This document shows positions 3,397 to 64,000 of a DNA stretch of 64,000 nt, piece by piece. The first letter of the stretch is position 1. Each line of letters starts with the position of its first letter. Below the pieces are notes generated by a model, which saw only the letters and a program-made list of their open reading frames with translations, was not told the origin of the DNA and did no database searches. The position numbers were made by a program, and so were the translations under genes. Source of the stretch: a virus (Duplodnaviria > Heunggongvirae > Uroviricota > Caudoviricetes); IMG/VR virus record IMGVR_UViG_3300020576_002722, positions 1 to 64,000 of that record. One strand, 5' to 3'.

Positions 3397-3397
3397 T

Positions 3398-14081: not shown

Positions 14082-14093
14082 CTTCGCACCCAC

Positions 14094-17573: not shown

Positions 17574-17575
17574 CC

Positions 17576-17794
17576 ATGAGCATCAACAACAAGATCCCAG
17601 GAAAGCAAGACTTCATCCGTGCCGGCATCAGCTGGGACCGGGTGGAGCTTGCACGTAAGGCGGTAGCCGAGTCCGAGGCGAAGCTCGCCGAAGTGAGGGC
17701 CGACGACAAGCTGTCCAAGGAAGAGAAGACGGCCAAGATCAAGGCCATCAAAGACGCCCACACCGAGTACATCCTTTCGATCCGGAACAAGTGA
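17576..17794 (+). CDS. Small hypothetical protein (72 aa, coiled-coil)
   Basis: ATG 2 nt after the fibre-gene stop. Charged helical K/E-rich sequence. The 17507 start in the track would overlap. Confidence 0.4.
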   Translation: MSINNKIPGKQDFIRAGISWDRVELARKAVAESEAKLAEVRADDKLSKEEKTAKIKAIKDAHTEYILSIRNK

Positions 17795-21543: not shown

Positions 21544-22017
21544 ATGAGCGTACGACGCATTGAACAGGTCATGATGCAGGTGTTTTCCTTTGGGGACAAC
21601 ACTGTATCCAAGGTGATCACTGTGATCCTGTCGGCGGCAGCTGGATTCATCGCCCCCATCTGGCCTTTCCTGGCCCTGTCGTTCGTGCTTTCCGGATTCG
21701 ACCTGTACACTGGTTGGCGCAAGAGTAAGAAGCTGACCGGATCATCAGTAACATCCAAGGGGCTCGGAGGAACAGTAGAGAAGATTGTCCTGTACAGTCT
21801 GGCCATCCTGCTGGCCGAGGGCGTGCGAGTGGTGTTCGGCCTGGATGACATTTGGGGTCTCAATAAGATGACCTACGTGGTGGCTGGACTGATCGCGTGG
21901 CGTGAGCTTCTGAGTTGTTTTGAGAACATCTCCATAGTGATAGGTTGGGACCTTGTCGGTGAGTTCAAGGAGGCTATAAGGAATGGCGTGGCATCCATCT
22001 TCAGGAGCAAGTCTTAG
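21544..22017 (+). CDS. Holin (toxin-secretion/phage-lysis holin family-like, 157 aa)
   Basis: Two TM helices followed by FDLYTGWRKSKKLTGSSVTSKGLGGTVEKIV, resembling the conserved core of TIGR01593-type holins. Start refined to the first ATG after the upstream stop. Confidence 0.55.
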   Translation: MSVRRIEQVMMQVFSFGDNTVSKVITVILSAAAGFIAPIWPFLALSFVLSGFDLYTGWRKSKKLTGSSVTSKGLGGTVEKIVLYSLAILLAEGVRVVFGLDDIWGLNKMTYVVAGLIAWRELLSCFENISIVIGWDLVGEFKEAIRNGVASIFRSKS

Positions 22018-22543
22018 CGAACTCTTTGTGTAGCCTTTTGGCTGCATCAACGTATGCCTCATGAGCCTTTTGTGGATCGTCAAACACGCCCAGGTAGTAG
22101 TGCTTTTTGTTGGCTCCTATCTGGGCGACCCATTTGTTGCACTCCTTACTCCACGACACCCCTTTGAATCCGCTCTTGTTCCTGGAGTCCATGCTTCGAT
22201 TCATGTTGTTTTGACTCCTAGTAGCGAGCCTGAGATTGGACAGGGAGTTATTCCAGGGGTTATTGTCGATGTGATCAATGACCATTCCTTTGGGGATCAC
22301 CCTCCCCAGCATGGACCAGATGACATGATGCGCCGCCATCCTTTTGTAGTCAACACATACGGTTACCTGAAGGGCGGATCCATCTGGTTTTGTGCTTTTG
22401 CTTCCGGCCACCTTTCCGAGGTCGCGAACAAGGAACGTGTTGTAAGCCTGATTGCTTCCAAAGGACTCTCTTGGGCGCATCTTGAACGTAAGGTCCCCAG
22501 AGATGGGATCATAGTTGAATCGGTCAGAAAGGTTGGTGGTCAT
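22001..22543 (-). CDS. HNH homing endonuclease (HNH_3/AP2-like, 180 aa)
   Basis: Real frame starts MTTNLSDRFNY. HIDNNPWNNSLSNLRLATRSQNNMN HNH_3 motif plus FKGVSWSKECNKWVAQI...YLGVFDDPQKAHEAY AP2-like domain. The longer ORF-track frame is GC-rich read-through. Confidence 0.75.
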   Translation of the reverse strand: MTTNLSDRFNYDPISGDLTFKMRPRESFGSNQAYNTFLVRDLGKVAGSKSTKPDGSALQVTVCVDYKRMAAHHVIWSMLGRVIPKGMVIDHIDNNPWNNSLSNLRLATRSQNNMNRSMDSRNKSGFKGVSWSKECNKWVAQIGANKKHYYLGVFDDPQKAHEAYVDAAKRLHKEFAKTCS

Positions 22544-22765
22544 GCTTGTTTGTAATTGCAATATGCAAACATACGACAAAGTCTTGACGCCACCCCAGCA
22601 AGAAGGCTTGATTTGCATGTTCCGGAAATCGTTGTACATTCGCCGCCGTGGAGCGTAGGTCTGTCTACCATCCCGAGGGGAGAAAGTCTTCGTCAGCCCT
22701 GTCGGTAGGTCTTCGGCAGTACCACCACATCGAGCCCGCTCCCATTCCAACGAAACCACCCACAC

Positions 22766-23770
22766 ATGGCAGGAAAGCAAAGCGTTGCAGGGCAGATCGT
22801 AGAGCAGTATTGCAAGGACTTCCCGAAGATCAACAACGGAAGGCTGGCAAGAAAGATCGCAGAGGAACACCCACAGCTGGGGACCAGTGAGAAGATCCGA
22901 TGGCAGGTAAGGTTCTACCGTCTCCAGGCCGGGAAGACGCACCGCGACACCAGGAAGAAGAACGGTCACGCTCACATGGAGAAGGAGTCCGCTTCGAGCA
23001 ATGTGTACGAGCTTCCTGAGCCACGCATCATTGAGCGGGTCCCGTTCAAGATGCCAAGCTCGATCCGCAAGCTGCTTGTGTTCTCGGACATCCACGTACC
23101 GTACCACGACATGGACGTGGTCAAGCGTGGCATCGAGTTCGGCAAGAGCGAGGGGTGCGATGGGATTCTGCTGAACGGCGACACAATGGATATGTGTGGG
23201 CCATCGTCGCATGATCCGGATCCACGCAGCCTGGACCTTCCGTCCGAGCTGGAGGATGGACGCCAGTTCCTCAGGCACCTGAGGAATAAGTTCCCTAACA
23301 TCCCCATCTACTTCAAGGACGGGAATCACGAGAATAGGCTGGAGCGATATCTGATCAAGCAGGCACCCGTCCTGCTTGGCGTGGATGATTTCGAGCTGCG
23401 CAGCCTGCTCCGCATGGGCGAAGTGGGCATCCAGTGGATCGGCGACAAGCGCCTGTTCCTGGCCGGCAAGCTGGTCATCATACATGGCCACGAGTACAAG
23501 GGCGCGGGTGGTGTCAATCCGGCCAGGTGGCTCTCGCTGCGCACGTCCGGATCGATCATGTGTGGTCACTTCCACCGAAGCTCCTCGCACTTCTCCAAGT
23601 CCATCATGGACGAGATCTCTGGTGCCTGGTCTACCGGATGCATGTGCCACATGAGTCCCGACTACTCACCGTACAACCAGTGGAACCACGGGTTCGCGAT
23701 GGTCCACGTCAACAAGGACAAGACCTTCGAGGTTGAGAACAAGATGATGATCGGTGGCAAGGTACGATGA
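22766..23770 (+). CDS. Calcineurin-like metallophosphoesterase (334 aa)
   Basis: Canonical motifs in order: FSDIHVPYHD, NGDTMD, DGNHENR, IIHGHEY, CGHFH. Confidence 0.8.
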   Translation: MAGKQSVAGQIVEQYCKDFPKINNGRLARKIAEEHPQLGTSEKIRWQVRFYRLQAGKTHRDTRKKNGHAHMEKESASSNVYELPEPRIIERVPFKMPSSIRKLLVFSDIHVPYHDMDVVKRGIEFGKSEGCDGILLNGDTMDMCGPSSHDPDPRSLDLPSELEDGRQFLRHLRNKFPNIPIYFKDGNHENRLERYLIKQAPVLLGVDDFELRSLLRMGEVGIQWIGDKRLFLAGKLVIIHGHEYKGAGGVNPARWLSLRTSGSIMCGHFHRSSSHFSKSIMDEISGAWSTGCMCHMSPDYSPYNQWNHGFAMVHVNKDKTFEVENKMMIGGKVR

Positions 23771-31606: not shown

Positions 31607-31990
31607 TCAGCGCCCGGATCGAGGGTAGAAGACCCCTTTCATGTAGTCGTTCACGTCTGTCATGAACTCCTCTAGGGAGCGGCATTCATAGACTATCCAT
31701 CCAGCCTCTGAGAACCTGATCTGCATCTCTTTCTGTGACTCGGATAGCTTGCCTTTGTCAGACTTCATCTCGATGGCCATGCCGCAGACGTGCGTATCTC
31801 CATACGTCCTGGGATGGCACACCAGGATATCAGGGACTCCGGCCAGTACCCCCATGTCCTTCCACAATTTCCCCATGTGTGGACTCCCGGCATCTCTGCC
31901 ATTGGGAGGGTGGAACGCCAGGACGTTAGGGTACTGTAACCGGAGCCACTTGATACACGCCTTCTGGAGCGCTTGTTCTGGACGCTTCAT
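31607..31990 (-). CDS. VRR-NUC domain nuclease (127 aa)
   Basis: Start refined to MKRPEQALQK (ATGA overlap with the RNA ligase stop). AIEMKSDKGKLSESQKEM and VLAGVPDILVCHP fit the PD-(D/E)xK VRR-NUC fold. Confidence 0.6.
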   Translation of the reverse strand: MKRPEQALQKACIKWLRLQYPNVLAFHPPNGRDAGSPHMGKLWKDMGVLAGVPDILVCHPRTYGDTHVCGMAIEMKSDKGKLSESQKEMQIRFSEAGWIVYECRSLEEFMTDVNDYMKGVFYPRSGR

Positions 31991-33063
31991 TCCTCGTACT
32001 TGAGAAGGAACTGAGGATTGATCGCCTTGAACGATATGCGTCCACGGGTCACCGTCTTGCCGGTGATGAAGGTCTCGGTCATCTCTTCCAGGCTGCGCAC
32101 CACGATCCCCTCGGCCCATACGTCGGGGTTGATGGCGCTCTTGCGGGTGGCGAAACCAACCAGCTCGTCAACACTGAGGGCACCAAGGGTGAGGCAGTCG
32201 ATGTACGGGACCATCTTCAGGTCCATCGATCCGAATGCGACTGCGGCATCGCTAGGCAGGTACGGCTTGCCGGCATCGATGTCGAACACGTTGAAGAAGA
32301 GAACCTTGCGGCCGGTCAGCTTGTACTTGTTGCCCTGGATCCCTTCGCCGATCAGCTCGCCCTGGATGGCGATGTTCTTGCCGTAGTCGCGGAGCTTCTG
32401 CTCGACGTTCATCTCTCGGGCGTACTGCCAGAACGCATTCCTTTCGTCCTCCTTCAGCTCCAGGTTGCGCGAGCAGACCCCGAACTCCCCGTTGTACAGG
32501 TAGAAGGTAGCGCTGCTGCCGTCCATCTTCTCGCGGATCTCCACCTGCGCTGCGGCGTACTTGTCCAGGATGCCTGGCATGTTCTGGATCCGCTCCTCGT
32601 CCGTCTTGTGGATGAAGGATGGGAAGTAGCCGCGCACGGTACCGCCCAGGCAGGCCGGGATGGCGGGCTCGTACTTGATGATGCCGAGCAGCTCTGTCAC
32701 ATCGTACCCTTCTGCTGACAAGCCCAAGGCTGCGAACAGCTCGTGCTCGGCCGTGATAACATCGGCAAGGATCGACACCGGCATCATCAGGCCCTGGGAT
32801 ACCTGTCCCTTGAGTTTGATGGTGCGCACACGCATGTGGCGTGGCTTCATGAACTCGAACTCTGGTCGGTCAGGAAGGATGCTGTCCGGCTCTATGAATA
32901 CGATCGAATCGCCAATTCTGTGTCCGGCATCGTTCCTGATCACGCACTTCCACCCCAATACGCTGGCTACGGACACTTCGTCGGCTCCGGGTATTGGCTG
33001 GATGTCAGAGATCGTCTGTATGCTTGCAAGTTTTCTGCTCATGATTTTGTGTTTGAGAGCCAT
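31987..33063 (-). CDS. ATP-dependent RNA ligase, DraRnl/Rnl5-like (358 aa)
   Basis: N-terminal MSRKLASIQTISDIQPIPGADEVSVASVLGWKCVI OB-like module and KMDGSSATFY nucleotidyltransferase motif I (KxDG). Confidence 0.65.
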   Translation of the reverse strand: MALKHKIMSRKLASIQTISDIQPIPGADEVSVASVLGWKCVIRNDAGHRIGDSIVFIEPDSILPDRPEFEFMKPRHMRVRTIKLKGQVSQGLMMPVSILADVITAEHELFAALGLSAEGYDVTELLGIIKYEPAIPACLGGTVRGYFPSFIHKTDEERIQNMPGILDKYAAAQVEIREKMDGSSATFYLYNGEFGVCSRNLELKEDERNAFWQYAREMNVEQKLRDYGKNIAIQGELIGEGIQGNKYKLTGRKVLFFNVFDIDAGKPYLPSDAAVAFGSMDLKMVPYIDCLTLGALSVDELVGFATRKSAINPDVWAEGIVVRSLEEMTETFITGKTVTRGRISFKAINPQFLLKYEE

Positions 33064-33458
33064 TCGATCGCTGATCGTAGGCGGTTAACGTCATCTTTCA
33101 AGTGGCCTATTCCCTTATTACAGGCAGAGCACAGGAGTCCCCTGACCCTACCGGTCTTGTGGTCGTGATCTACTGTCACTGTATCCATTGCTTGACCCTT
33201 GGTCTTTGTGGGCATCTTCATCTTGCACTTGCATATACCACACTCTCCGCGAAACGCCATCCACATGGCGTCAAACTCGCCCGGATCAAGCCCATACTTC
33301 TTGCTCAGGTGCCAGTTCCTGCGATATATGGATATGTCTGCATGTATGCGTCTATGCGATCCATTGCATTTGTAACAACGGACTGACTTATTTCCAGCCG
33401 TACCGGTTCCGCAGTCAATGCAGTGGCCTCTGATCCTACGCGTCTTGACTAACTCCAT
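33039..33458 (-). CDS. Endonuclease VII-like Holliday-junction resolvase (139 aa)
   Basis: GECGICKCKM...VTVDHDHKTGRVRGLLCSACNKGIGH matches the T4 endonuclease VII family signature. Low-GC island. Confidence 0.75.
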   Translation of the reverse strand: MELVKTRRIRGHCIDCGTGTAGNKSVRCYKCNGSHRRIHADISIYRRNWHLSKKYGLDPGEFDAMWMAFRGECGICKCKMKMPTKTKGQAMDTVTVDHDHKTGRVRGLLCSACNKGIGHLKDDVNRLRSAIEWLSNTKS

Positions 33459-33906
33459 TTGCTTCGTTGCGTAATGTATCCCTTCTCATGAACATGATGA
33501 TCCACGACTCCTGATCACCGTGCTTGCCAGATTCAAGATCCTCCCGGTTATTGTCATGCCAAGACTGGTGACAATGGCCGCAAACGATGCGGATATTCCG
33601 AGGATCCGTCTTGTAGTTCCTATACGTTCCCCTCTCAAGGAGGTGGGAGAAGTTGATCGGCTGCGGTGGATCGGATATTGGAATGCCGCATACCTCACAG
33701 CAGTGTTCCCGTAGGCCAAGATCATCACCGGTCTCCCAGATCTCCAGGGCTGCTTTCCACCAGCCCTTGTTTGATGGTGCCCTCTTCCGAAGTGGCTTCC
33801 TCTTGCTCTCCAGCTTCGACGCCTTCGTCACCAGGCCCCTCTTCATCATCTCCGTCAACGATGGCTTGGTGAACGGCTTCCTTGCGAGCTGCTTTTTCCT
33901 GAGCAT
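33436..33906 (-). CDS. HNH endonuclease (up to 156 aa; true start uncertain)
   Basis: CCEVCG...IVCGHCHQSWH HNH core. The N-terminal ~60 aa overlap the upstream gene out of frame. Confidence 0.55.
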   Translation of the reverse strand: MLRKKQLARKPFTKPSLTEMMKRGLVTKASKLESKRKPLRKRAPSNKGWWKAALEIWETGDDLGLREHCCEVCGIPISDPPQPINFSHLLERGTYRNYKTDPRNIRIVCGHCHQSWHDNNREDLESGKHGDQESWIIMFMRRDTLRNEANGVSQDA

Positions 33907-54119: not shown

Positions 54120-56063
54120 ATGGCAACCCGCACCGGTACGATCTTCGTCCTGAACTTCGACCCAAGGCCAGTGCCATCGGGTGACATCTGGATCGAGGTT
54201 CCGGGTGAGTACGACCAGGCCACCAACACCCGCAGGTTCAAGTTCAAGGTCGGCACCGGGCAGACCGCTTACAAGTATCTCCCGTACGGGCTGATCGGAG
54301 AGGAGACCGCCGCGCCGGCATCGACCGGCGGCAACATGGTCGGTCCCGCGTCGAGCACCGACAACGCACTGGTCCGATGGGACGGCACCACCGGTAAGCT
54401 GACCCAGAACTCGGTCATCGTCGTCTCTGACCTGGGAGCCATCACCGGGATCCTGTCGCTGAACGGGAACACGTTCGGGCCTACCCCAGGGGTACTGATC
54501 GTCCAGGGCAACGCGCTCACCCTCCTGTCGTCCGGGGCAGCCGCCGCAGGCCAGGTGGCTACCGCCGATGGGGCCGGCAACATCACATGGGTAACACCGA
54601 CAGCTGGGACAGGAGACGTCGTTGGACCGGCATCCGCCGTAGATGGCCACATCGTACAGTTCGACGGGGTAACCGGTAAGCTGATCAAGGACGGCCTGGC
54701 GACGTCCGCCGGCGGGAACGGTACGGCCGACTCCGGGAAGGTCCCTGTGTTCGGCGCTGACGGAAGCCTGTCAGTGGCCAATACAGGAGGCTCCGGATCA
54801 GCTCTGCTGGCCACGTCCGACGTTGCCTTCTTGCCCGCCGTGAACGCACTCAGCAATGGGAGCGGGCCGGCCGGCGCATTCTACAACAGCTCCACCGGCG
54901 ACGGGGTCAACGCATCGGTGAACGACGGGTACGCCGTATTCGGACTGAACGACTCGATAACGGCACCCGCTGGCCACTTCCAGAACGTGGACCCCACGAA
55001 GACTGGGGACCTTGGGCAGTTCCACAATGCCGATGACGACGGGCTCATCATCGAGAACGACGGTGGCCTCGACTGGACGACCCCTACTGGAGCGCAGTCA
55101 ACGGCCACCAATCTGCCCGTGTTCAGTGCTCTCAAGAAGGGAGTCGTGCCGGCGGCCGGCGCAGTACCATCGGCCACCAAGTTCCTGGACGAGACCGGGG
55201 CCTGGGCAGTTCCTCCGGACACCGATACCGGGATCACCCAGCTCACTGGAGATGTCACGGCTGGGCCTGGAAGTGGATCGCAGGCAGCTACGCTCGCCTC
55301 CGTCATCACGGCTGGTGGGCCGACGGGTAGCGCTTCGGTCGTCCCGGTCATCACCTATGACGCCAAGGGGAGGTTGACCGCCGTGTCCACGGCAACCATT
55401 ACACCTGCCGCTATCGGCGCTCCGGCCGGGTCAGGTACAAGTACAGGAACGAATACCGGGGACCAGACCAACATCTCCGGGAACGCGGCAACCGTTACCA
55501 CCAACGCCAACCTCACCGGCCCGGTCACGTCGGTAGGTAACGCCACCACGATCGCGGACCCAGAGCTGGCGGCTATCGCAGCCCTGACAAGCGCAGCGGA
55601 CAAGACCATCCAGTTCACTGGATCCGGAACGGCGGCACTGGTGAACTTGAAGGAGGGTCCGGAAGCGGCCTACACTGGAACGATCACATGGACAGCCGGA
55701 GCGGCCCCGTCTGGAGCGTCGTCACTCAGGCAGTTCTATACACAGGTCGGCAACCAGGTGTCGTGGCAGATCAGCTTGACGTACGCCAACACCGGAACTA
55801 CCGTAACGAACGTAGTGTTGACCTTCCCCACTGAATTCCCGACACCCGCGATACCATCAGGCTTCACGGGTGCCAGCGTTCGCCTGTACAGTTGCGACAA
55901 CGTACGCTTGTTGAGTACGCCCACCGGCTCGCTCGCTAATGCAACGGGCTTCTTCGTGATGCGGAACGCGGCTGATACCGGGTTCGATATCAAGAGCACT
56001 GGTACGTTCGCATCCGGATCCTATCGCACGTTCATCTTCGGTGGAACATATTTCACCTCCTGA
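54120..56063 (+). CDS. Second tail fibre-like protein (647 aa)
   Basis: Repeats STDNALVRWDGTTGKLTQNS and SAVDGHIVQFDGVTGKLIKDG, and KFLDETGAWAVPP, all common in phage fibre and host-specificity proteins. G/T/A-rich beta-sheet repeats. Confidence 0.65.
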   Translation: MATRTGTIFVLNFDPRPVPSGDIWIEVPGEYDQATNTRRFKFKVGTGQTAYKYLPYGLIGEETAAPASTGGNMVGPASSTDNALVRWDGTTGKLTQNSVIVVSDLGAITGILSLNGNTFGPTPGVLIVQGNALTLLSSGAAAAGQVATADGAGNITWVTPTAGTGDVVGPASAVDGHIVQFDGVTGKLIKDGLATSAGGNGTADSGKVPVFGADGSLSVANTGGSGSALLATSDVAFLPAVNALSNGSGPAGAFYNSSTGDGVNASVNDGYAVFGLNDSITAPAGHFQNVDPTKTGDLGQFHNADDDGLIIENDGGLDWTTPTGAQSTATNLPVFSALKKGVVPAAGAVPSATKFLDETGAWAVPPDTDTGITQLTGDVTAGPGSGSQAATLASVITAGGPTGSASVVPVITYDAKGRLTAVSTATITPAAIGAPAGSGTSTGTNTGDQTNISGNAATVTTNANLTGPVTSVGNATTIADPELAAIAALTSAADKTIQFTGSGTAALVNLKEGPEAAYTGTITWTAGAAPSGASSLRQFYTQVGNQVSWQISLTYANTGTTVTNVVLTFPTEFPTPAIPSGFTGASVRLYSCDNVRLLSTPTGSLANATGFFVMRNAADTGFDIKSTGTFASGSYRTFIFGGTYFTS

Positions 56064-56375
56064 TCACTGGTCCTCCCAGCTGATCACCTGGCCGATCGGA
56101 AGGCCGTCAGCGTACGACCTGAACTCCCAGCTTGAGTCCAGGTAGGCCACGTAGGTCTGGTCGTGCGTATAGGCAACGACGATCTGATCGGGCTCCGGAA
56201 GCTCCATGACGTGGCTGGATCGAAACGACAGCAGGTACCCGATCGCTACGCCGGCTGCCAGCGCTACGGATGCCCACACCTTCACATTGGAGATGTACTC
56301 GTCCTTGGCCTGCTTCAACTCCAGGCGATGGCGCTCAAGCGCTGCGTTCCTGGCCTCCCTTGCTGTGCTGTTCAT
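56064..56375 (-). CDS. Hypothetical single-TM protein (103 aa)
   Basis: Central hydrophobic helix VWASVALAAGVAIGYLL. Confidence 0.45.
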   Translation of the reverse strand: MNSTAREARNAALERHRLELKQAKDEYISNVKVWASVALAAGVAIGYLLSFRSSHVMELPEPDQIVVAYTHDQTYVAYLDSSWEFRSYADGLPIGQVISWEDQ

Positions 56376-56950
56376 ATTTTGGTCCTTGTTGATGGCATGT
56401 ACATGTTGACCGGGTATCCGTAGTCGTACTTGCGTCCATTGACATCAACCAGGTACCTGTATTCATCCTTTGCGACGATCTCCAGGTGCCTGTCGCTGTA
56501 TCCATTAGGAGCCGGCTTGATCTCCCATCCATGGTACATGATCTTTCCGCCAACGTTTCCATGATTCTTTCGCACGATACCGCGACGATCAAGCTCACTG
56601 GCGAGTTCATGGATATTCCTTGCACCCATCATGAGGTAGAAAGACTGCGGATCCAGGGCCAACGCATAGATCTTCATATCGATCGCGCTGATGATGTCGA
56701 ATGGCTTCGACTCGGCAACTCTGATCGGAAGTGGATTCCTGCTGACCAGGTCATCCACGTCACGATGTGTGCAGCTCCCGAACATCTCAGAGTACTTGTC
56801 GGCAGAGATCTTCTCCTCTGCGAACAGCTTCTTGAGCCTCTGGTCAGGTGACTCCTCTTTTTTCATTTCGCTCCAGAATGTCCGGTAATCAATATACTGT
56901 TCACTGAAAATCATCACCATCTCATCGACGGCCCTAATATGCTTTTCCAT
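56372..56950 (-). CDS. Hypothetical protein (192 aa) in a low-GC island
   Basis: ORF. AT-richer than its neighbours. Confidence 0.5.
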   Translation of the reverse strand: MEKHIRAVDEMVMIFSEQYIDYRTFWSEMKKEESPDQRLKKLFAEEKISADKYSEMFGSCTHRDVDDLVSRNPLPIRVAESKPFDIISAIDMKIYALALDPQSFYLMMGARNIHELASELDRRGIVRKNHGNVGGKIMYHGWEIKPAPNGYSDRHLEIVAKDEYRYLVDVNGRKYDYGYPVNMYMPSTRTKI

Positions 56951-57347
56951 GCTTGTGCGGCCTCGTTTCGTTGTAGGCCATCTTCAGCTCGATGTGGCGC
57001 TCCAGGTCGATACCCATCGCTCCGCACATGTCGGCGATCCTGATCACTGCATCGGCCAGCTCATCCTCGAAGGTGTCCTTGATGTGCTCAGTGAACGCCT
57101 CTTTGAAGATAGGGCTCTCAATGCGCTGCACGATCTCTCCGCGCTCATCCACCTTGAGCATGGTTGGACGTACCTCTATGTCGAAGGCACCAATAGATGC
57201 CCTCCTGTTATTCCTGTCAGCCTCCAGCGCCTCGCTCAGTTCACTGACCACGAGCATCAGGCGCTCGCCTACGTTCTGCTCGCGCTCGTAGAAGCCCTTG
57301 GCCACTGCGTTCGCGTGAGCCATCTTGATCAGATCCTTGATGTTCAT
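56934..57347 (-). CDS. MazG-like nucleoside triphosphate pyrophosphohydrolase (137 aa from MNIKDLIKMA)
   Basis: LMLVVSELSEALEADR and EDELADAVIRIADMCGAMGIDLE match the MazG/NTP-PPase EExxE/D helices. Confidence 0.6.
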   Translation of the reverse strand: MNIKDLIKMAHANAVAKGFYEREQNVGERLMLVVSELSEALEADRNNRRASIGAFDIEVRPTMLKVDERGEIVQRIESPIFKEAFTEHIKDTFEDELADAVIRIADMCGAMGIDLERHIELKMAYNETRPHKHGKAY

Positions 57348-57640
57348 AGCGAAAGCGTAAGCGTGTCTCCGCACATTCTGGTATTGAATGTTGCGCTATC
57401 TACGCGCACGCATCGAACACCGGAACGATTGGCGATGAACCAGTTCCATTCCGGATACTTCCATACGTGATGATGTACGACCACGACCGGTACGTATGCG
57501 TACGAATAAGTCCTTGTGCCATCGTGACACATGTGCCCAGGTGTATACTCCTTGGCCACCAGGTATCCGTGGAACGGCTCAGGGTCACACCCCGACAGGA
57601 GCGCTGTCAGGAACAGCAGCGCCATCATCTTTCGTTTCAT
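57344..57640 (-). CDS. Lipoprotein (98 aa)
   Basis: MKRKMMALLFLTALLSGCD signal and lipobox. ATGA overlap with the mazG-like start. Confidence 0.5.
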   Translation of the reverse strand: MKRKMMALLFLTALLSGCDPEPFHGYLVAKEYTPGHMCHDGTRTYSYAYVPVVVVHHHVWKYPEWNWFIANRSGVRCVRVDSATFNTRMCGDTLTLSL

Positions 57641-57899
57641 TTGTCATGACCTGTTTTACGTACTCTTCGATCGGTACTCCTTCCGGTTTCTCCTTCATGA
57701 TGCGCTCGTTCACGGCGAGCAACTGCTTCCATTGTGCCCCGGTCATCGACTTGCCGGCGATCGGGCCGTCCTCGAATGTGTAGACGACCTTGTCGTTCAT
57801 GGCCGCTACCACCTCGCCGAACGTGTGCTTCTTCTCGATGACCCGTTTGCTCTTGCGACGGGCCGCCCTTCCTGGGCTGCGTGGGTTACTCTTGCTCAT
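57585..57899 (-). CDS. Hypothetical basic protein (104 aa)
   Basis: ORF. Overlaps its neighbour by 56 nt. Confidence 0.4.
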   Translation of the reverse strand: MSKSNPRSPGRAARRKSKRVIEKKHTFGEVVAAMNDKVVYTFEDGPIAGKSMTGAQWKQLLAVNERIMKEKPEGVPIEEYVKQVMTNETKDDGAAVPDSAPVGV

Positions 57900-58036
57900 C
57901 GTGACAGGTCTTTCAGGTGCTTGATCCGCTTGTGGCCTACCTCATACCTGCGATTGTGCGGGGCATCCATCAGGTAGCACAGGATCCCGTACGAGATCAC
58001 TGCAACGACCAGATGCGCTATCAGGTACGTGATCAT
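57896..58036 (-). CDS. Small membrane protein (46 aa), not in the ORF track
   Basis: ATGA overlaps on both sides. MITYLIAHLVVAVISYGILCYLM. Confidence 0.3.
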   Translation of the reverse strand: MITYLIAHLVVAVISYGILCYLMDAPHNRRYEVGHKRIKHLKDLSR

Positions 58037-58326
58037 TGGTCGATCTTCGTCAATGCGTTCGGCTTCACGAACTGGGCGATGTCGATCCGCTCGTTCAGCT
58101 TCTTCACCTCGTCGGCCAGCGTGTCGTGCAGCGCTACGATGGCACCATCGACGGTTCCGGCCGTATTCGACAGGGTTGTGATCTGCTTCTTGATCGACCT
58201 CGACAACTCTTGCTGGGAGCCTCCCCAGTACTCGAACGCAGATTCAACGTCCTTTGCGGTCTTCTTGTCCTTGCGCAACTTCCACAGGAATGCCGCAGTG
58301 AGCAGTGTTAGCCAGATGGTGTTCAT
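58033..58326 (-). CDS. Membrane-anchored coiled-coil protein (97 aa from MNTIWLTLLT)
   Basis: N-terminal TM helix then a coiled coil. Upstream part of the ORF-track entry is junk. Confidence 0.4.
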   Translation of the reverse strand: MNTIWLTLLTAAFLWKLRKDKKTAKDVESAFEYWGGSQQELSRSIKKQITTLSNTAGTVDGAIVALHDTLADEVKKLNERIDIAQFVKPNALTKIDQ

Positions 58327-58487
58327 GAGTTGTTGGGTTTGTACTTGCGGGTGAGGAGGACGTGGTACGTTCCATTGGGTCCAGGAAGTACGGCAATGGC
58401 GATAGTCGCCTTGCCGTGACTGGTCACAAGGCTCTCGATCAGGTCCGGTAGGCCCTGGAGGTCGGTGTCGAATTGGACTGTTTCCAT
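58323..58487 (-). CDS. Small hypothetical protein (54 aa, METVQFDTDLQGLPDLIESLVTSHGKATIAIAVLPGPNGTYHVLLTRKYKPNNS), not in the ORF track
   Basis: ATGA overlap with the 58326 start. Confidence 0.3.
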   Translation of the reverse strand: METVQFDTDLQGLPDLIESLVTSHGKATIAIAVLPGPNGTYHVLLTRKYKPNNS

Positions 58488-58615
58488 GATTGGAGGAGGC
58501 AAGGGTAAGAGGTATCACTGAGTAATGCAAGAGGAATTTTCGCCTCACAGGTCAACTCGCTGATACTCAGGTGGAAAATTTCCTACCTTCGCATGTTCAA
58601 ACGAGAGAACGTTAC

Positions 58616-58969
58616 ATGGAAATCACTTTCGCACCCACCGGCCAGGTCGTTGATACGGCTTTCGCCACGCCCCAGAAAGGCACCGTCATCGCCCCGGTAG
58701 GTATCCCCTATCTGAATGTCCCCGACACCGATCCTCCGACCACCCCGTACGACGGAGTGATCGTGGACGGTGGAAGCTCCCTGTACCCGATCATGGGTGG
58801 ACCGGTGTACAACCTGTCCTTCTATGGCCCCGGTGGGACCCTGAAGGTGGCCGACTTCGCTATGGAAAGCGAGGCCGCTATCGCCACCGCTCAGGCTACC
58901 ATCGCTACCGCCCTGAACGCGACTACCGCTGCCATCACGCTGAACGCGGACGGAACGCTCGGTTCCTAA
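58616..58969 (+). CDS. Hypothetical protein (117 aa from MEITFAPTGQ)
   Basis: Lone plus-strand gene between two minus blocks. Start after an A-rich leader. Confidence 0.45.
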   Translation: MEITFAPTGQVVDTAFATPQKGTVIAPVGIPYLNVPDTDPPTTPYDGVIVDGGSSLYPIMGGPVYNLSFYGPGGTLKVADFAMESEAAIATAQATIATALNATTAAITLNADGTLGS

Positions 58970-58993
58970 GGATCCTGCCCGACAAGGCCGAGA

Positions 58994-60508
58994 TCAGCCC
59001 TGAGAGGGGCTTTTCTTGTTTGCCATCCTCTCTGCCACTTCTGCCCTGATCCGGTCGAACTTGGCCTTGTCCTCCTCGGCCTTCCTGTTTATGTAGGCGG
59101 CCGTACCTCTCTCCGGAGGGGACTTCATGATGATCGTATTGACCCTGTCGACCCAGTTGATATCGAGCATCTTGGCCAGATCCCTGATCACGCGGTAGTC
59201 CCCCCTGCGCCAGGGCTCCCACTCGACCGACCCAAGGTGCTGCGAATGGAAGGCGAACGAGATCCCGCTGATATCGCCGGCCACGATCTTGCCCCAATTC
59301 TCGTTTGACGGTATCAGCTTCTGTCCGGACATGGTCCTCCAGATCGTCGTCTGGTCAGGATGCAGCTCGCTGGCGATGTTGGCCAGGCCATTCGGCGCAA
59401 TGATATCGTCGTCGTCCAGGTACATGACATACCCGGATCGCACATGTCTGGCCAGCTCATTCAGGTACCTGTTGGCAGCCAGTGGTGCCGCGTAGTCTGG
59501 CCCACCTGGTGGTGCACCGACTGCGTACGGATGCACGCGCACCTTGTAGAACGGGTATTTGCAGATGAACCTGAATGTGTCGTCATCATGGTACGACGCG
59601 ATGACGTTCCAGTTGCGGTACAGCTGACCCTTCAAGCTGCTGTACAGCCTCTCGATCCCCTGCTCCCTGCGGTGGCATCGGACCAGGATGTTGATCAGCG
59701 GATCCTTGGCCACCCACTTGGAGAACACGATGGCGCACAGGTCGTCGTATGTATGTACAACCTTTATGATCGATCCACCCAGGTCCGGGTACCAGTTGTT
59801 GAAGCTGTTGATGTTGGGCCACAGCTCTCGGCACTCCTTGGAGTAGATGATGTTCTCGCCCCCGAAGTAGCTGCACAGGATCGAGTGGCCACCGTTCATG
59901 GTGATAAATCGCTCGCAGCCGGCGAACACTCGGCACTGTACCTCATTGAAGTCGCCCCCATGCGAGTCGACCAGGTCGTTCATGAACACGACCTCAGGGT
60001 ACTCCCTGGCGATCATGTCGTAGTCTCCAAGGTCCATCGAGTGGGCCGTATCCTCAAGTTCCTCGTTCCCGCGCACGTTCACGTACACGACCGTGTGGTC
60101 CGGGATCAGCATGTCGAACAACCTGCGCAGCGTCGGCAGGTCGAAGTAGTTGATCGGGCCACGACCCCACTCGCTATTGTAGCGGTTGCAGATGCATACG
60201 GTAGGCTTCTCGAACGTGATCGCGTCGGCCGAGAAGTGCTCCTTCAGCGGAGGTGGACGCCACTTGTCCTTGTCGAGGATTGGCTTATGGATCCTCATGT
60301 TGGGGATCTCCTTCACCGCCTCATTCGTGGCCTCGAAGCTGCGCTGCTTCGGATTGATCTGGTGGTCCGGCGAGAACCAGTATAGTGGCTCGCTACCTGG
60401 GCCACTGATGGTCCCCTCCAGGGTCCCGTTCAGGAAGTGGTAGTACGCGTACGGGAGCGTAGCGATCAGCTCGTACCCGAACTCAGTGTTGTGGCTGTTG
60501 ACTCTCAT
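58994..60508 (-). CDS. Two-domain protein with C-terminal GT-A-type (DxD) glycosyltransferase-like domain (504 aa)
   Basis: YVMYLDDDDIIAPNGL DxD motif in the C-terminal ~200 aa. N-terminal ~290 aa are of unknown function. Lower GC. Confidence 0.5.
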   Translation of the reverse strand: MRVNSHNTEFGYELIATLPYAYYHFLNGTLEGTISGPGSEPLYWFSPDHQINPKQRSFEATNEAVKEIPNMRIHKPILDKDKWRPPPLKEHFSADAITFEKPTVCICNRYNSEWGRGPINYFDLPTLRRLFDMLIPDHTVVYVNVRGNEELEDTAHSMDLGDYDMIAREYPEVVFMNDLVDSHGGDFNEVQCRVFAGCERFITMNGGHSILCSYFGGENIIYSKECRELWPNINSFNNWYPDLGGSIIKVVHTYDDLCAIVFSKWVAKDPLINILVRCHRREQGIERLYSSLKGQLYRNWNVIASYHDDDTFRFICKYPFYKVRVHPYAVGAPPGGPDYAAPLAANRYLNELARHVRSGYVMYLDDDDIIAPNGLANIASELHPDQTTIWRTMSGQKLIPSNENWGKIVAGDISGISFAFHSQHLGSVEWEPWRRGDYRVIRDLAKMLDINWVDRVNTIIMKSPPERGTAAYINRKAEEDKAKFDRIRAEVAERMANKKSPSQG

Positions 60509-60749
60509 TCTCGCAAGCTATGACCTGCGTATTGTCCAGGGTCTCGCAGTGCCGGCATCCGGATGTCGTGGACTCGATCCACTCGTGGCCGTTGGTACAC
60601 TGGAACACCTTGATCGATACGGTTCGATCGTGGAAGTGATAGCCGTCGTCATCGTTGATCCTGAGGAGGGGCCCCTCTTGCTCGGTCTCCTCCATCAACT
60701 GTGGCCTGCTTCTCAGACCATCCCTCTTGCACACCGGACATTCGCTCAT
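60483..60749 (-). CDS. Zinc-ribbon protein (88 aa)
   Basis: CPVC...CTNGHEW...CRHC. Confidence 0.45.
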   Translation of the reverse strand: MSECPVCKRDGLRSRPQLMEETEQEGPLLRINDDDGYHFHDRTVSIKVFQCTNGHEWIESTTSGCRHCETLDNTQVIACENESQQPQH

Positions 60750-61204
60750 AGTTTCCAGAGATTCTTCTCAAAGGTATCAGGAATCCTGAAGTCGATGATC
60801 TCTCGGACCACGTTCCAGTTGAGGCCACCCAGGTGGCATCCGATCAATGGGAAGTTGATCGCAAGTGTTCCGTCGATCGCAGCCAAGACGGCTACCTGTT
60901 GCATACACGCATCCATCGCATCGTAACTCGCATACTTCCTCCCGTCCTTTCCGTAGAACTCCTGCGTGAAGCAGTTCATGACGATCGTGTTGTCGCTGCC
61001 GAACAGATGTACCTCTTGAACGTCACCAAGCAAGTGGCCTCCAGGTCTCTTGGACGCAACATGCTTCAAGTACTCAGTGAACACTTTGGGCCACTTGTTC
61101 CGGATGGCGAGCGCCACACCAGATCCCATCACGCCTTGGGTATTAACCCCGTGCAGGATGATGCCTTTCGCGGTGAGAAGGTCACCCTTGATCTCGTTGA
61201 TCAT
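60746..61204 (-). CDS. Macro domain protein (ADP-ribose-binding or ADP-ribosylhydrolase-like, 152 aa)
   Basis: GDLLTAKGIILHGVNTQGVMGSGVALAI matches the macro-domain G-rich phosphate-binding motif. Confidence 0.7.
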   Translation of the reverse strand: MINEIKGDLLTAKGIILHGVNTQGVMGSGVALAIRNKWPKVFTEYLKHVASKRPGGHLLGDVQEVHLFGSDNTIVMNCFTQEFYGKDGRKYASYDAMDACMQQVAVLAAIDGTLAINFPLIGCHLGGLNWNVVREIIDFRIPDTFEKNLWKL

Positions 61205-61986
61205 TTGAAGTAGGAGTCGATGCGTTCGCGGATCTCCCTCATGCTTCCAGCCCTAGTGATCACCCCGTCAGCGAACACCACATCGAAGGCGCAGTCGTGA
61301 ACATCTTCCCATGATGCCTGCTCCTGCAATAGGAACCCGTGATCGTGGTCGTGGTGTACAGCCAGGAGCCCCTTGGCGCTGTTCTTTCCACCATTGTCGG
61401 TCTTCGGCTTCTTGAAGATCTCGCGAGGCTTGTAGTTCACCACTCCGTAGGTGGCCTTGATCGCCATGCCGTAGGTGTCACGGGTCACATACTGGTACGT
61501 GTAGCTGCCGATGCCGAACACGACATTGGTGCTGGCGAACCCTTTCGCGATCAGCCTGTCGACGATCTTCTGGGCACGCTCCGGGGTGATGCTGTCTCCG
61601 TAGATGGCACCGATATGCGGGTCGAGAACCTTGAATCCCTTCTCGTTCACGGTACCTCCGAAGGTGTTCCATAGGCACTCAATGAGCCCTTTGCCCTCTG
61701 GGGTCATCTTGGTAAAGGTTCTAGTACCAGGAAGATGGTATCCGCACAGGATGTCCACCGGATCCCCGCTGTCTGGCCTGATCACCACCTTGCCTTCACG
61801 ATTCATGATCTCTGATTTCAGGGCCGGCAGATACTCGGTGACCACCTTCCAGAAGTCCCATGTGTCGCTGACGATGCTGATGATCCCGGACGGATGTACC
61901 TCAGTGATCAGGCGCTTGAAGTGGAGAAATTCCCCTCTTGTAAGTCTCTCTTCTTCAGAGAGTTTCCTTGTCCGTGTTTTCTTCAT
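61201..61986 (-). CDS. nadV: Nicotinamide phosphoribosyltransferase, C-terminal half (separate ORF, 261 aa)
   Basis: IVSDTWDFW, VIRPDSGDP, IYGDSIT and VVFGIGSYTYQYVTRDTYGMAIKATYGVVN align with the C-terminal catalytic half of NAMPT. Confidence 0.8.
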   Translation of the reverse strand: MKKTRTRKLSEEERLTRGEFLHFKRLITEVHPSGIISIVSDTWDFWKVVTEYLPALKSEIMNREGKVVIRPDSGDPVDILCGYHLPGTRTFTKMTPEGKGLIECLWNTFGGTVNEKGFKVLDPHIGAIYGDSITPERAQKIVDRLIAKGFASTNVVFGIGSYTYQYVTRDTYGMAIKATYGVVNYKPREIFKKPKTDNGGKNSAKGLLAVHHDHDHGFLLQEQASWEDVHDCAFDVVFADGVITRAGSMREIRERIDSYFK

Positions 61987-62012
61987 ACTTTTGCTGTCGT
62001 TAACATGACCCT

Positions 62013-62675
62013 ATGATCGGGACAAAGATATGCTCCAGATGCAAGGATCGAAAGGTTCTTGACGAATTTCCAGTGAACTCCAGGTTCCCGGACGGAAGGA
62101 ACTCCAAATGCAAGCTCTGTACGAACGCACTGAACAAGGCTTACAGGGACTCCAATAAGGAGGCATTCTGCGCATCCAGGAGAAGGCACTACATAGCAAA
62201 CCTGGAGAAGATGCGATCTGGAAGGCGAAAGTACGCCGCATCCAACAAGGACAAAAAGAGCCAGTATGATGTATCGTACAGGGCTCAAAACAAATCCAAA
62301 ATAGCGGCCTACAAGAAACAGTGGGAAAGGAACCTCATGAGTGACCCTGTGTTCAGGATCAAGAGAAACCTTCGCCGCAGGATTAGTCACGTCCTTAACG
62401 GAAGACTGAAGACGGCAGATACGTTCAGCCTCGTTGGATGTACGCCGTCCGAGTTCAGGGACCACATTCAGTCCCAATGGACCGAAGGGATGTCCTGGGA
62501 TAACTACGGATACCGTGGATGGCATGTTGATCATGTGATACCGTGCTGCTCATTTGATCTGTCTACCGAGGATGGCCAGAGAAGGTGTTTTCACTTCAGC
62601 AACCAAAGGCCGCTATGGGCATTAGACAACCTTCGGAAGGGCAGGAAGATCCCTGACCCACTTCCATTGTCCTGA
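62013..62675 (+). mobile_element. HNH homing endonuclease gene (220 aa) on the strand opposite to the nadV gene it splits
   Basis: CSRCKDRK and CKLC zinc knuckles. GYRGWHVDHVIPCCSF...NQRPLWALDNLRKG HNH core. AT-rich relative to flanks. Its 3' end overlaps the nadV N-half tail by 54 nt. Confidence 0.75.
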
Positions 62676-63452
62676 CGCCTCGTCGTACTCCTCTTCAACC
62701 TCCAGCACCTCTTCTGCATAATCTGTTGATGCAAGGCAGCAGACAGCATGTTCTGTGGCCGGCACCGAGTATCCGTCTGCACCTCCGTAGTACTCGTCAC
62801 AGAAGTCGAGCGCAGCGAACGTATCGGTCCCAAGGAACGATGTCAGGTGCGCGGCACCGCTCATGATAGCGGCCTCCACTCCGAACATCCCGCGCATCGA
62901 GAAGTCGTGGCCCTGGAACTTGACGAAGAACTTGTCGCCGCCACTCATTTCTGCGGCCCCCTCCAGGATCTGCCGGTACCGGAACGCCGTAGTTGCTGAC
63001 GTGATCATCGGCCACAGGGTGACAGACATCAGGGTCTCCAGGTAGTTCGGCAGCCAGTAGGCGCTCGGGTGCGTGTTGTAGGTCACCAGGAACGGGACCT
63101 TTGTCCGGACCTTTGATCCTTCAGGCAGCGCCATGATCGTGATCGGCAGGTATCCTAGATCATGCAGCTCTTCGATATGCTTCATCGATACCTTGTCGGG
63201 CCCAAGGTACGCGTCGATGCGCTTCTTGTAGGCAGCGACCGCGTCAGCCTTCGGAACCCCGAAGAAGGATTCATTCCACTCCTTTATCAGGTAGCGCTTG
63301 ATGTAGTACTTGAGGCCAAAGAAGATGTTGTAGTCGACACCAGGAATGCGGCTGCTCCTTGATGTCATGTTGTTGAACACGAGCGACGTTCCTTCCGGGA
63401 ACATGGGCGCATGTCCCACCTTGTATCCGTCTGTCAGGTTGAGCGCTTTCAT
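62622..63452 (-). CDS. nadV: Nicotinamide phosphoribosyltransferase, N-terminal half (276 aa from MKALNLTDGYK)
   Basis: LNLTDGYKVGHAPMFPEG, FQGHDFSMRGMFGVEAAIMSGAAHLTSFLGTDT and GYSVPATEH align with the NAMPT N-terminal half. The last ~40 aa do not align and read into the spacer. Confidence 0.8.
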   Translation of the reverse strand: MKALNLTDGYKVGHAPMFPEGTSLVFNNMTSRSSRIPGVDYNIFFGLKYYIKRYLIKEWNESFFGVPKADAVAAYKKRIDAYLGPDKVSMKHIEELHDLGYLPITIMALPEGSKVRTKVPFLVTYNTHPSAYWLPNYLETLMSVTLWPMITSATTAFRYRQILEGAAEMSGGDKFFVKFQGHDFSMRGMFGVEAAIMSGAAHLTSFLGTDTFAALDFCDEYYGGADGYSVPATEHAVCCLASTDYAEEVLEVEEEYDEASGQWKWVRDLPALPKVV

Positions 63453-64000
63453 ATCTCTGTGCGGTTGATGCGTGATTCGTCGATACTGTCGAGCATGAAC
63501 GAGTTGGTCGTGTAGATGGCGTCGATTCCGTCGTTCAGCAATACGTCTAGGCCGTGCGTGAAGAGGCCGTGCGTGGCGCATAGGATGACCTTCTGGGCTC
63601 CGGCGTACTTCAGCTTCTTGGACAGCTCGATGAACGTCCTTCCTCCGTCGCAGATGTCGTCGACGATGATGACATCCTTATTGAGTAGGTCTGCTCCCAT
63701 GATCGCACCTGGGATCACTTTTCCGTCCTCCCTCCTCTTCGTCGTGAAGCAGATGCCATTGGTGTTGCCAACTGCGGCCGACATCAGGTCCACGCGCTTC
63801 ATGGCACCCAAGTCTGGTGCGCAGAACACAGCGTCAGGATACGCGGCCTTCGCAGCCATGACGTGGCCGACGAACCGCATGGTCGTGTAGTTGTCGATCA
63901 GCGCCGGCATCACATCGCTGTGCGGATCCAATGACATCACGCTCGTGTACCCCTGCGCATTGATCAACTTAGCCATGACCGACGCCGACAGGGCCTCCCC
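63449..64000 (-). CDS. prs: Ribose-phosphate pyrophosphokinase (PRPP synthetase), 5'-partial at the window edge
   Basis: VIIVDDICDGGRT PRPP-binding loop. Aligns with the C-terminal two-thirds of Prs. Frame stays open to the window end. ATGA-coupled to nadV. Confidence 0.8.
   Translation of the reverse strand, partial: GEALSASVMAKLINAQGYTSVMSLDPHSDVMPALIDNYTTMRFVGHVMAAKAAYPDAVFCAPDLGAMKRVDLMSAAVGNTNGICFTTKRREDGKVIPGAIMGADLLNKDVIIVDDICDGGRTFIELSKKLKYAGAQKVILCATHGLFTHGLDVLLNDGIDAIYTTNSFMLDSIDESRINRTEI

Follow-up and report, generated by a model that had tools for sequence, protein, structure and literature searches.

What does a phage gain from an operon in which a prs-like gene, a nadV-like gene in two pieces and a Macro-domain gene follow one another? 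The question is raised by one end of a 64,000-nucleotide stretch of a Caudoviricetes virus (IMG/VR record IMGVR_UViG_3300020576_002722, positions 1 to 64,000; hereafter the window, meaning this whole stretch). An earlier note, made from the sequence alone, had described a phosphoribosyl pyrophosphate (PRPP) synthetase and a split NAMPT that yield nicotinamide mononucleotide (NMN), and had proposed a toolkit against host defences that deplete NAD+. This idea was partly supported, being right in spirit and wrong in its chemistry. The anti-defence role is backed by homology to experimentally validated systems, but the proteins match Adps and Namat, the pair that forms NAD+ directly from ADP-ribose (ADPR), ATP and nicotinamide (10.1101/2024.02.11.579819). 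We conclude that the operon Adps, Namat N-half, HNH gene on the opposite strand, Namat C-half and Macro very probably encodes the NARP1-AP counter-defence pathway, a known system, in an unusual two-piece form. The order of the genes, the ranking of their homologues, the diagnostic residues, how far the split is conserved, the motifs of tail and leader and the association with HNH genes were computed here; enzyme activities, reassembly of the halves and target specificity of the HNH protein we infer from homologues.

We hypothesize that the pathway would begin when a host NADase (SIR2, TIR, SEFIR and similar) splits NAD+ into ADPR and nicotinamide. Adps would move the beta-gamma pyrophosphate of ATP onto ADPR, giving ADPR pyrophosphate (ADPR-PP), and Namat would then swap this pyrophosphate for nicotinamide, so that NAD+ would be restored directly, with no NMN step and no NMNAT. 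The Macro protein, as Adpp, would act after RES-type NAD+ phosphorylases and strip their 1''-phosphate from ADPR, and this ADPR could then enter the pathway. Namat itself would act as two polypeptides that reassemble non-covalently, probably aided by an acidic hairpin tail and a basic leader, and the gap between its halves would serve as a long-lived landing site for one lineage of HNH homing endonucleases.

The NAMPT-like halves as a probable Namat

Both NAMPT-like halves find their best PDB match in entry 9W5X (E 5e-68 for the N-half and 1.5e-76 for the C-half), ahead of HdNadV (1e-59 and 1e-58) and human NAMPT (1e-31 and 2e-21). Entries 9W5X and 9W5W are the crystal structure of the Namat that phage SPbetaL1 encodes, which is the nicotinamide ADP-ribose transferase in NAD+ reconstitution pathway 1 (NARP1; PMC12774641). 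Compared with the SPbetaL1 sequence, taken from record OQ921341, the N-half is 48% and the C-half 53% identical, and the two together cover residues 11-489 with nothing lost. Residues 1-244 of the N-half, with the catalytic His235 and the clamp Arg35 among them, correspond to Namat 6-254; after its leader, the C-half corresponds to Namat 253-489 and includes the catalytic Arg70 (R306 of Namat) and the clamp residues Tyr162 and Tyr166 (F392 and Y396). Mutagenesis has shown that the selectivity clamp R40, F392 and Y396 makes Namat use ADPR-PP rather than PRPP; R306 is the catalytic residue (PMC12774641). The two aromatics of the clamp helix, which Nampt lacks, lie in the C-half motif GIGSYTYQY, at positions where HdNadV has Q/R, Xcc NAMPT A/K and human NAMPT G/K, the latter as given by the F392G and Y396K design (PMC12774641). 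The alignment of R35 in the N-half to the clamp-loop R40 carries little weight, the loop being variable (PMC12774641).

An AlphaFold2 (AF2) model of the halves joined head to tail, built from a 99-sequence alignment, has a mean predicted local distance difference test score (pLDDT) of 88.8, and its best fold match is again Namat 9W5X (template modelling scores 0.82/0.91), above HdNadV and mammalian NAMPT. From the single sequence, the pLDDT was 35.6 and the model was uninformative. Characterised Namats are one chain of ~490 aa; the two open reading frames (ORFs) of 276 and 261 aa represent an architectural and not a catalytic difference. Judged by these features, the halves fit best a Namat that would convert ADPR-PP and nicotinamide to NAD+.

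The prs-like gene as a probable Adps

The prs-like gene runs past the window end, and its full length of 291 aa was recovered at locus L002 (6271-7146), with the start ~324 nt past the window end. L002 is the same phage, with 99.9% identity to the window across 11.5 kb, and extends beyond it. The part inside the window matches Pfam Pribosyltran and Pribosyl_synth, and the full L002 ORF adds Pribosyltran_N. With ICP1 Adps/NrsA the protein shares 37% identity and 139 bits, compared with 86 bits for the best canonical PRPP synthetase (PRPS) in the PDB, where searches with the fragment and with the full protein returned canonical PRPS only and no Adps entry. It also scores below every NCBIfam PRPS equivalog cut-off.

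ICP1 ORF228/NrsA was used as the Adps reference, since its residues fit the published numbering exactly (PMC13586617, UniProt F1D1Q1). The acceptor-site residues F18, R87, H121, D161, D212 and D213 are all kept, as F41, R101, H135, D171, D222 and D223, and so is the pyrophosphate (PP) loop DDICDG..F (ICP1 D212, D213, I214, C215, D216 and F221). The form DDICDGGRTF is common to most Adps linked to a split Namat. Adps is further marked by a remodelled PP loop and donor site (C215-S220, F221 and F223), by F92 and by K185 on the beta-hairpin; of these, ICP1 F223 is replaced by E in the prs-like protein. Adps are without the C-terminal alpha11-alpha12 module of PRPS (PMC13586617). In the prs-like protein, the C-terminus is likewise short, and the alignment to E. 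coli PRPS ends at position 278 of 316 with 13 query residues left. This feature is supportive only, archaeal class III PRPS being just as short. The SPbetaL1 homologue gave no measurable product in a Prs activity test but pyrophosphorylated ADPR (10.1101/2024.02.11.579819). The best fit for the prs-like protein is an Adps, or ADPR-pyrophosphate synthetase, predicted to make ADPR-PP out of ADPR with ATP.

A recurrent split in Namat

The earlier note had recognised the two halves, which are real, but had left the split unexplained and had not reported the HNH gene between them. The break in Namat falls ~10 residues past the catalytic His and leaves two intact ORFs that have stop and start codons of their own. 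Residues 245-276 of the N-half (~32 extra) form a split-specific acidic tail, VEEEYDEASGQWKWV..., and the sequence at the break reads ...VLEVEEEYDEASGQWKWVRDLPALPKVV. The C-half begins with a 17-aa basic leader, MKKTRTRKLSEEERLTR, and then rejoins the Namat sequence. Among the best 120 homologues of the N-half, 46 are shorter than 330 aa; of these, ~35 appear to be true split N-halves, and the others stop short at the end of a contig. The tail motif [VI]EEE[YWF][DN]E..G.W occurs in at least 25 of these 46, and the leader motif M-x-x-R-x-R-x-L-[ST]-x-x-E-[KR]-L-x-x-GE is common to ~20 C-half-only proteins. When 20 N-half homologues were aligned (13 of them N-half-only), the catalytic and core residues were all kept at 49-57% identity. 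Half-size Namat families already exist in PHROGs (16547 and 15800), and the isolates with the closest relatives of the N-half include several crAss-like phages (49-52% identity).

The gene context of the split was inspected in 12 lineages, including the window, whose Namat cores are only ~35-76% identical. In 8 other lineages, a homologue of the window HNH (44-51% identity) lies at this split site, antisense as in the window in L014, L016, L098, L099 and L100, and sense in L009 (the Zavarzinella formosa genome), L010 and L015. In L007, where the gap is 56 nt, and in L102, which has a different tail type, Namat is split without an HNH gene; in L101, also with a different tail type, no HNH gene lies between the halves and the C-half carries an intein. 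Because the split recurs over at least 12 divergent lineages, most of them with the conserved tail and leader, long-term purifying selection on the split Namat is indicated. As part of the overall interpretation, we regard the split Namat of the window as very probably functional and not as decay.

The window HNH protein belongs to PHROG 1035 (endonuclease VII/HNH; E 7e-20) and has the motif HxDH...N...N, and its last 18 codons overlap the coding sequence of the Namat-N tail. Only the 3 closest of its 80 best IMG/VR relatives sit in Namat, which argues for one HNH sub-lineage specialised on the split site. By comparing the distances of HNH and Namat, no correlation was found (r ~0, 8 loci only). 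Between L009 and L099, identity is 76% for the Namat N-halves and 41% for the HNH genes, which also differ in orientation. This mismatch points to HNH turnover at a persistent split. Identity within split Namats equals that between split and full-length Namats along the whole N-half, and the neighbour-joining tree is interleaved and star-like at ~50% identity, a pattern compatible with one origin of the split, with several, or with its spread as a cassette.

AF2 models the tail as a beta-hairpin (251-257 and 262-265) and the leader as a strand (280-284), at pLDDT 46-72. Such elements are compatible with a small docking sheet but are not evidence for one. As a tentative proposal, which we hold to be somewhat less than an even chance, the acidic tail and the basic leader may be a dedicated docking pair that lets Namat tolerate a permanent gene break, and the break may be a stable pad on which one HNH lineage has been gained, lost and flipped. 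It would mean that selfish endonucleases have a heritable 'split-and-dock' route into a conserved gene, distinct from introns and inteins, in many uncultured phages and at least one bacterial genome. In the literature searched on NARP1 with HNH and on NAMPT with homing endonucleases, as well as in the paper on the structure of Namat and the NARP1 preprint of 2024, no description of a split Namat was found; a Namat that recurs in two pieces, with conserved peptides at the junction and an HNH lineage dedicated to it, appears to be an undescribed element.

A 183-codon ORF (window 61983-62534, minus strand) was considered as a second type of insert and rejected, since it merely reads the HNH DNA in antisense. 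At its end it overlaps the start of Namat-C by ATGA, and in L002 and L006 gene callers took it in place of the HNH gene. A role as a 'bridging ORF' that couples translation into Namat-C was also rejected, L014 being without an equivalent open frame. The ORF is probably due to chance or GC-driven, though its length is unusual.

Three further loci were noted. At L101 (5862-7595), the C-half has 577 aa, with a ~320-aa intein-like insertion inside the conserved motif IRPD|SGDP; Namat genes therefore attract several kinds of selfish elements. At L009 (Zavarzinella formosa JH636446.1, 300029-312895), Adps, a split Namat and a sense HNH gene lie in a planctomycete assembly, possibly in a prophage. 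In crAss-like phage cr85_1 (L104, NC_055883.1:92293-93813), a Namat-like gene is annotated as two coding sequences of 50 and 448 aa, with a different, N-terminal break, and an Adps-like gene comes after it.

The Macro gene as candidate Adpp

The Macro gene matches Pfam Macro PF01661 (E 9e-12) and PHROG 335 'phosphatase' (E 1e-37). A Macro-domain gene, Adpp, occurs in ~15% of NARP1 operons; it removes the phosphate from ADPR-1''-phosphate, the product of RES-domain NAD+ phosphorylases (aRES), and so feeds NARP1, the combination being NARP1-AP (10.64898/2026.01.28.702374). Adpp has been defined as a Macro gene (PF01661, PF14519 or PF20016) at most 2 genes from Adps and Namat (10.64898/2026.01.28.702374). 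The window gene falls within this operational definition, lying directly 3' of Namat-C with an ATGA overlap, and Macro genes also adjoin split NARP1 in L007, L010 and L015. Compared with its relative in L001, the gene has 15 synonymous and 0 non-synonymous differences and, by this pattern, is under strong purifying selection. By sequence the protein falls in the Poa1p/TARG1/DarG group and is not specifically closest to Poa1p (6LFT), which it matches with E 9e-5 over residues 3-93 only. It is without the catalytic Lys of DarG and TARG1, with FTQEF at a site that reads FPTKKHW in DarG and FTSSF in Poa1p. On balance, we favour, with some reserve, its assignment as Adpp, a putative ADPR-1''-P phosphatase.

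In L001, L003, L004 and L006, an extra HNH_3 gene (173 aa; L001:8466-8987) is inserted 19-20 codons into the Macro ORF (window ~61145-61204). The insert reuses the Macro start and repeats the first 20 Macro codons with synonymous changes, by which Macro is restored. The 3' end of Namat-C beside this site is the most divergent stretch between these phages and resembles a co-conversion tract. Repeated invasion that leaves the operon genes intact argues that the operon is under selection.

Elsewhere, at L010 (750-10480), a split NARP1 lies within a dense ADP-ribose-processing island with Macro, NADAR, Tpt1/KptA (PTS_2-RNA), metallophosphatase, PARG, 3 ADP-ribosylglycohydrolase genes and a nucleoside deoxyribosyltransferase-like gene.

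Alternative explanations

Several observations weigh against the assignment of the operon to NARP1-AP. In the prs-like protein, ICP1 F92 is replaced by C and A218-A219-S220 by GRT, and K185 aligns to K196 only after a 2-residue loop shift. Namat keeps about half of the PRPP-dependent NMN activity of NAMPT in vitro (PMC12774641), and some NMN production by the window protein may also be conceivable. No Shine-Dalgarno-like sequence is visible before Namat-N, Namat-C or HNH, and it is the Namat-C case that counts here. The contact of tail and leader is an AF2 feature of moderate confidence from an artificial single-chain fusion. For the Macro protein, the macro domains of BT1257 (uncharacterised), SCO6735 and DarG outscore Poa1p as PDB matches, and its closest isolate homologues, in phages PBECO4 and FADO, are not beside NARP1.

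Some of these points touch on what the enzymes make. A genuine PRPP synthetase and NAMPT/NadV could produce NMN, which a host or phage NMNAT would convert to NAD+, as in NARP2-type salvage. The Pfam and NCBIfam names of the proteins (Pribosyltran/ribP_PPkin and NAPRTase/NAMPT_N) agree with this explanation, as do the residual NMN-forming activity of Namat (PMC12774641) and the second place that HdNadV (40% identity), an enzyme that does form NMN, takes among the structural matches. On the other hand, the clamp residues are of the Namat type (Y/Y) and not of the NadV type (Q/R), Namat is the nearest solved structure by 9-18 orders of magnitude in E-value, and the prs-like protein reaches none of the PRPS equivalog thresholds, has ICP1 Adps as its closest match and has in SPbetaL1 a homologue that pyrophosphorylated ADPR without a measurable Prs product (10.1101/2024.02.11.579819). 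The partner search proposed in the earlier note gave no NMNAT or Nudix gene in the window, and NARP1 needs none: Pfam found no match among the module genes and 20 minus-strand ORFs at 33-48 kb (which include primase, DnaB, endonuclease VII, HNH and RNA ligase), and a six-frame scan across the window found no Nudix box or NMNAT motif, the DNA covered in all being the 64 kb and ~6.6 kb of flank. We consider NMN salvage improbable. Another function of Macro has more in its favour, although we still regard it as unlikely. It would reverse ADP-ribosylation (of DNA by DarT-type enzymes, or mono-ADP-ribosylation of proteins) or remove O-acetyl-ADPR, and its link to NARP1 would be only the free ADPR released. 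The best NCBIfam match is the DarG antitoxin macro domain (E 9e-18, below cut-off), DarG and SCO6735 outrank Poa1p in the PDB, and homologous phage Macro genes are found away from NARP1. Against it stand the replaced catalytic Lys (FPTKK in DarG/TARG1), the translational coupling of Macro inside the NARP1 operon, the recurrence of Macro genes beside split NARP1 in the three lineages named above, and the finding that the sole NARP1-linked Macro protein tested is an ADPR-1P phosphatase needed against aRES (10.64898/2026.01.28.702374).

The interruption of Namat can be read in two other ways. The split gene might be a pseudogene killed by HNH insertion and the operon a decaying remnant, as a 635-nt interruption with a gene on the opposite strand, the missing ribosome-binding site before the C-half and the uninformative single-sequence AF2 model would allow. 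Against this, each half is an unbroken ORF that retains all catalytic and clamp residues, the same split is found in at least 12 lineages with cores ~35-76% identical, most of which share the conserved tail and leader, the halves are identical or near-identical over 23 contigs from several samples, and L007 retains the two-ORF form without an HNH gene; decay is quite improbable. Still more so is a self-splicing group I intron or an intein from which one full-length Namat would be made, an explanation that we give hardly any credence. Phage HNH genes are often found in group I introns, and Namat-C of L101 carries an intein elsewhere in the gene. A group I intron is excluded because Rfam gave neither an intron nor any other RNA in 56000-64000 even at E <= 1, HNH and Namat lie on opposite strands in the window and 5 other lineages, and the whole interruption in L007 is 56 nt. 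Strand and frame exclude an intein, whose Cys/HN junction motifs are absent, and the halves have their own stop and start codons and conserved extra peptides. A NARP1-AP pathway with a functional two-piece Namat remains the preferred explanation.

Comparison with known systems

NARP1-AP of Vibrio phage Gary (10.64898/2026.01.28.702374) resembles the window in having a PRPS-like Adps, a Nampt-like Namat and Macro in one operon, and the same function is expected, namely NAD+ from ADPR or ADPR-1''-P and nicotinamide. The likening of the window Macro to Gary Adpp is by domain and operon position, not by sequence. The gene order is Adps-Namat-Macro in the window and Adps-Macro-Namat in Gary; unlike Gary, the window has Namat in two pieces with HNH between them, and zinc-ribbon and glycosyltransferase-like genes coupled downstream. 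For NARP1 of ICP1 (NrsA/NrsB), Bas63 (gp79-80) and SPbetaL1, genetic or biochemical evidence is available (10.1101/2024.02.11.579819, 10.1101/2024.06.17.599363, PMC12774641, PMC13586617). Their Namats are 48-58% identical to that of the window, with the same catalytic and clamp residues, but each is one chain of 488-491 aa, and in the regions inspected the pair has no Macro gene beside it. ICP1 Adps (37% identical) shares the acceptor-site residues and the DDICD PP loop. In these phages, as in the window, the two genes are adjacent and coupled. NARP2 of phage KVP40 (Nampt and a bifunctional Nmnat/Nudix) has in common with the window a Nampt-family enzyme that restores NAD+; it needs PRPP and NMNAT, whereas the window has Namat-type clamp residues and no NMNAT or Nudix gene was found there.

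In T4-like phages, genes come to be in pieces through free-standing homing endonucleases, as in Aeh1 nrdA, split by mobE, and T4 gp39/gp60 with mobA. The window is similar in that a free-standing HNH-type gene lies between the halves of a conserved enzyme gene that is probably functional as two polypeptides; as in such genes, the endonuclease gene is flanked by two intact halves with their own stop and start. Unlike the T4-like cases, the window-type split site recurs over very divergent phages and a planctomycete genome, with HNH in either orientation or absent. We know of no conserved acidic hairpin tail and basic leader in split genes of the T4 family.

Operon layout and neighbouring genes

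All ORFs named in the earlier note are present on the minus strand, and, apart from the zinc-ribbon protein, Pfam and PHROG matches back the family of each (Table 1). The single coupled operon of prs, nadV and Macro that it described holds in part. ATGA overlaps, pointing to translational coupling, are found at prs/Namat-N (where the Namat-N ATG overlaps the Adps stop codon), at Namat-C/Macro and at Macro/zinc-ribbon, but the Namat halves are 635 nt apart and not coupled to each other. The zinc-ribbon and glycosyltransferase-like genes do lie downstream, and the two overlap by 26 nt. A search for sigma-70-like promoters in 55500-64000 gave 0 matches against 4.6 expected from shuffles; the expression signals of the host may differ from those sought.

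Table 1. Position and strand of the operon genes, the HNH gene and the MazG-like gene in the window
Feature	Position	Strand	Remarks
Adps (prs-like), best fit	63449..>64000	-	truncated at the window end, with just the C-terminal 183 codons inside
Namat N-half (NAMPT-like), best fit	62622..63452	-	276 aa
HNH (endonuclease VII-like)	62013..62675	+	220 aa; antisense to the operon, between the Namat halves
Namat C-half (NAMPT-like), best fit	61201..61986	-	261 aa
Macro-domain protein, candidate Adpp	60746..61204	-	152 aa
Zinc-ribbon protein	60483..60749	-	88 aa
GT2-like protein	58994..60508	-	504 aa; last operon gene
MazG-like all-alpha NTP pyrophosphatase	56934..57374	-	146 aa; separate cluster

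The zinc-ribbon, GT2-like and MazG-like genes had also been named along with the NAD+ and ADP-ribose module, and nothing was found to link any of them to NAD+ or ADP-ribose. The zinc-ribbon protein has CxxC...CxxC motifs, no family match in Pfam, PHROG or NCBIfam and no counterpart beside NARP1 in the other loci examined. The match of the GT2-like protein to Pfam Glycos_transf_2 is weak (E 1.5e-4) and does not reach the family cut-off. At E <= 0.001 the protein has 259 homologues, many of the 120 best carry PF00535, and it belongs to a widespread phage family. In the homologue contexts examined (L096 and the crAss-like L097), which are unrelated ones, no NARP1 was found, and the gene is probably unrelated to NAD+. 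Both genes are probably co-transcribed passengers. The MazG-like gene is real (PHROG 9236 'pyrophosphatase', E 2e-36) but lies outside the operon, in a second minus-strand cluster parted from it by a plus-strand ORF (58571..58969) and a terminator-like hairpin (58996-59011). At L005 (4310-6410), a different cassette, including a 267-aa protein with dGTP_diPhyd_N (PF18909), replaces the MazG-bearing block (window ~57000-58000), so the MazG region is a separate, variable cassette and not part of the module.

The exact Macro protein is present on 23 metagenomic contigs, and among 50,697 phage records megablast found none that matches the 7-kb region. Positions 46-19095 of the window hold a plus-strand run of very large ORFs (1116, 554, 2753, 1159 and 434 aa) with essentially no PHROG or Pfam matches; because these are nearly matchless and no phage record matched by megablast, the phage represents an uncharacterised lineage. 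On the opposite strand inside this block of large genes, a 549-aa protein (22001-23650, minus strand) with a C-terminal HNH domain (PHROG 99, E 3e-59) is likely another mobile endonuclease. At 31987-33906 (minus strand), genes for endonuclease VII and HNH come after that of an RNA ligase of 358 aa (PHROG 968, E 4e-70). In L007, L096 and L101 too, RNA ligase genes occur near NARP1 or the glycosyltransferase homologue, which hints that an RNA-repair counter-defence function travels with NARP1 and glycosyltransferase modules.

Implications

The genes that would be annotated as prs and nadV are reclassified here as very probable NARP1-AP, a known anti-defence pathway. The phage is predicted to resist NAD+ depletion of the SIR2, TIR, SEFIR and RES types without NMNAT. 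Surveys that demand a full-length Namat would miss a sizeable share of NARP1 systems. Moreover, the split Namat would be a natural and recurrent case of an enzyme that survives the cut of a homing endonuclease, with candidate docking peptides at its junction.

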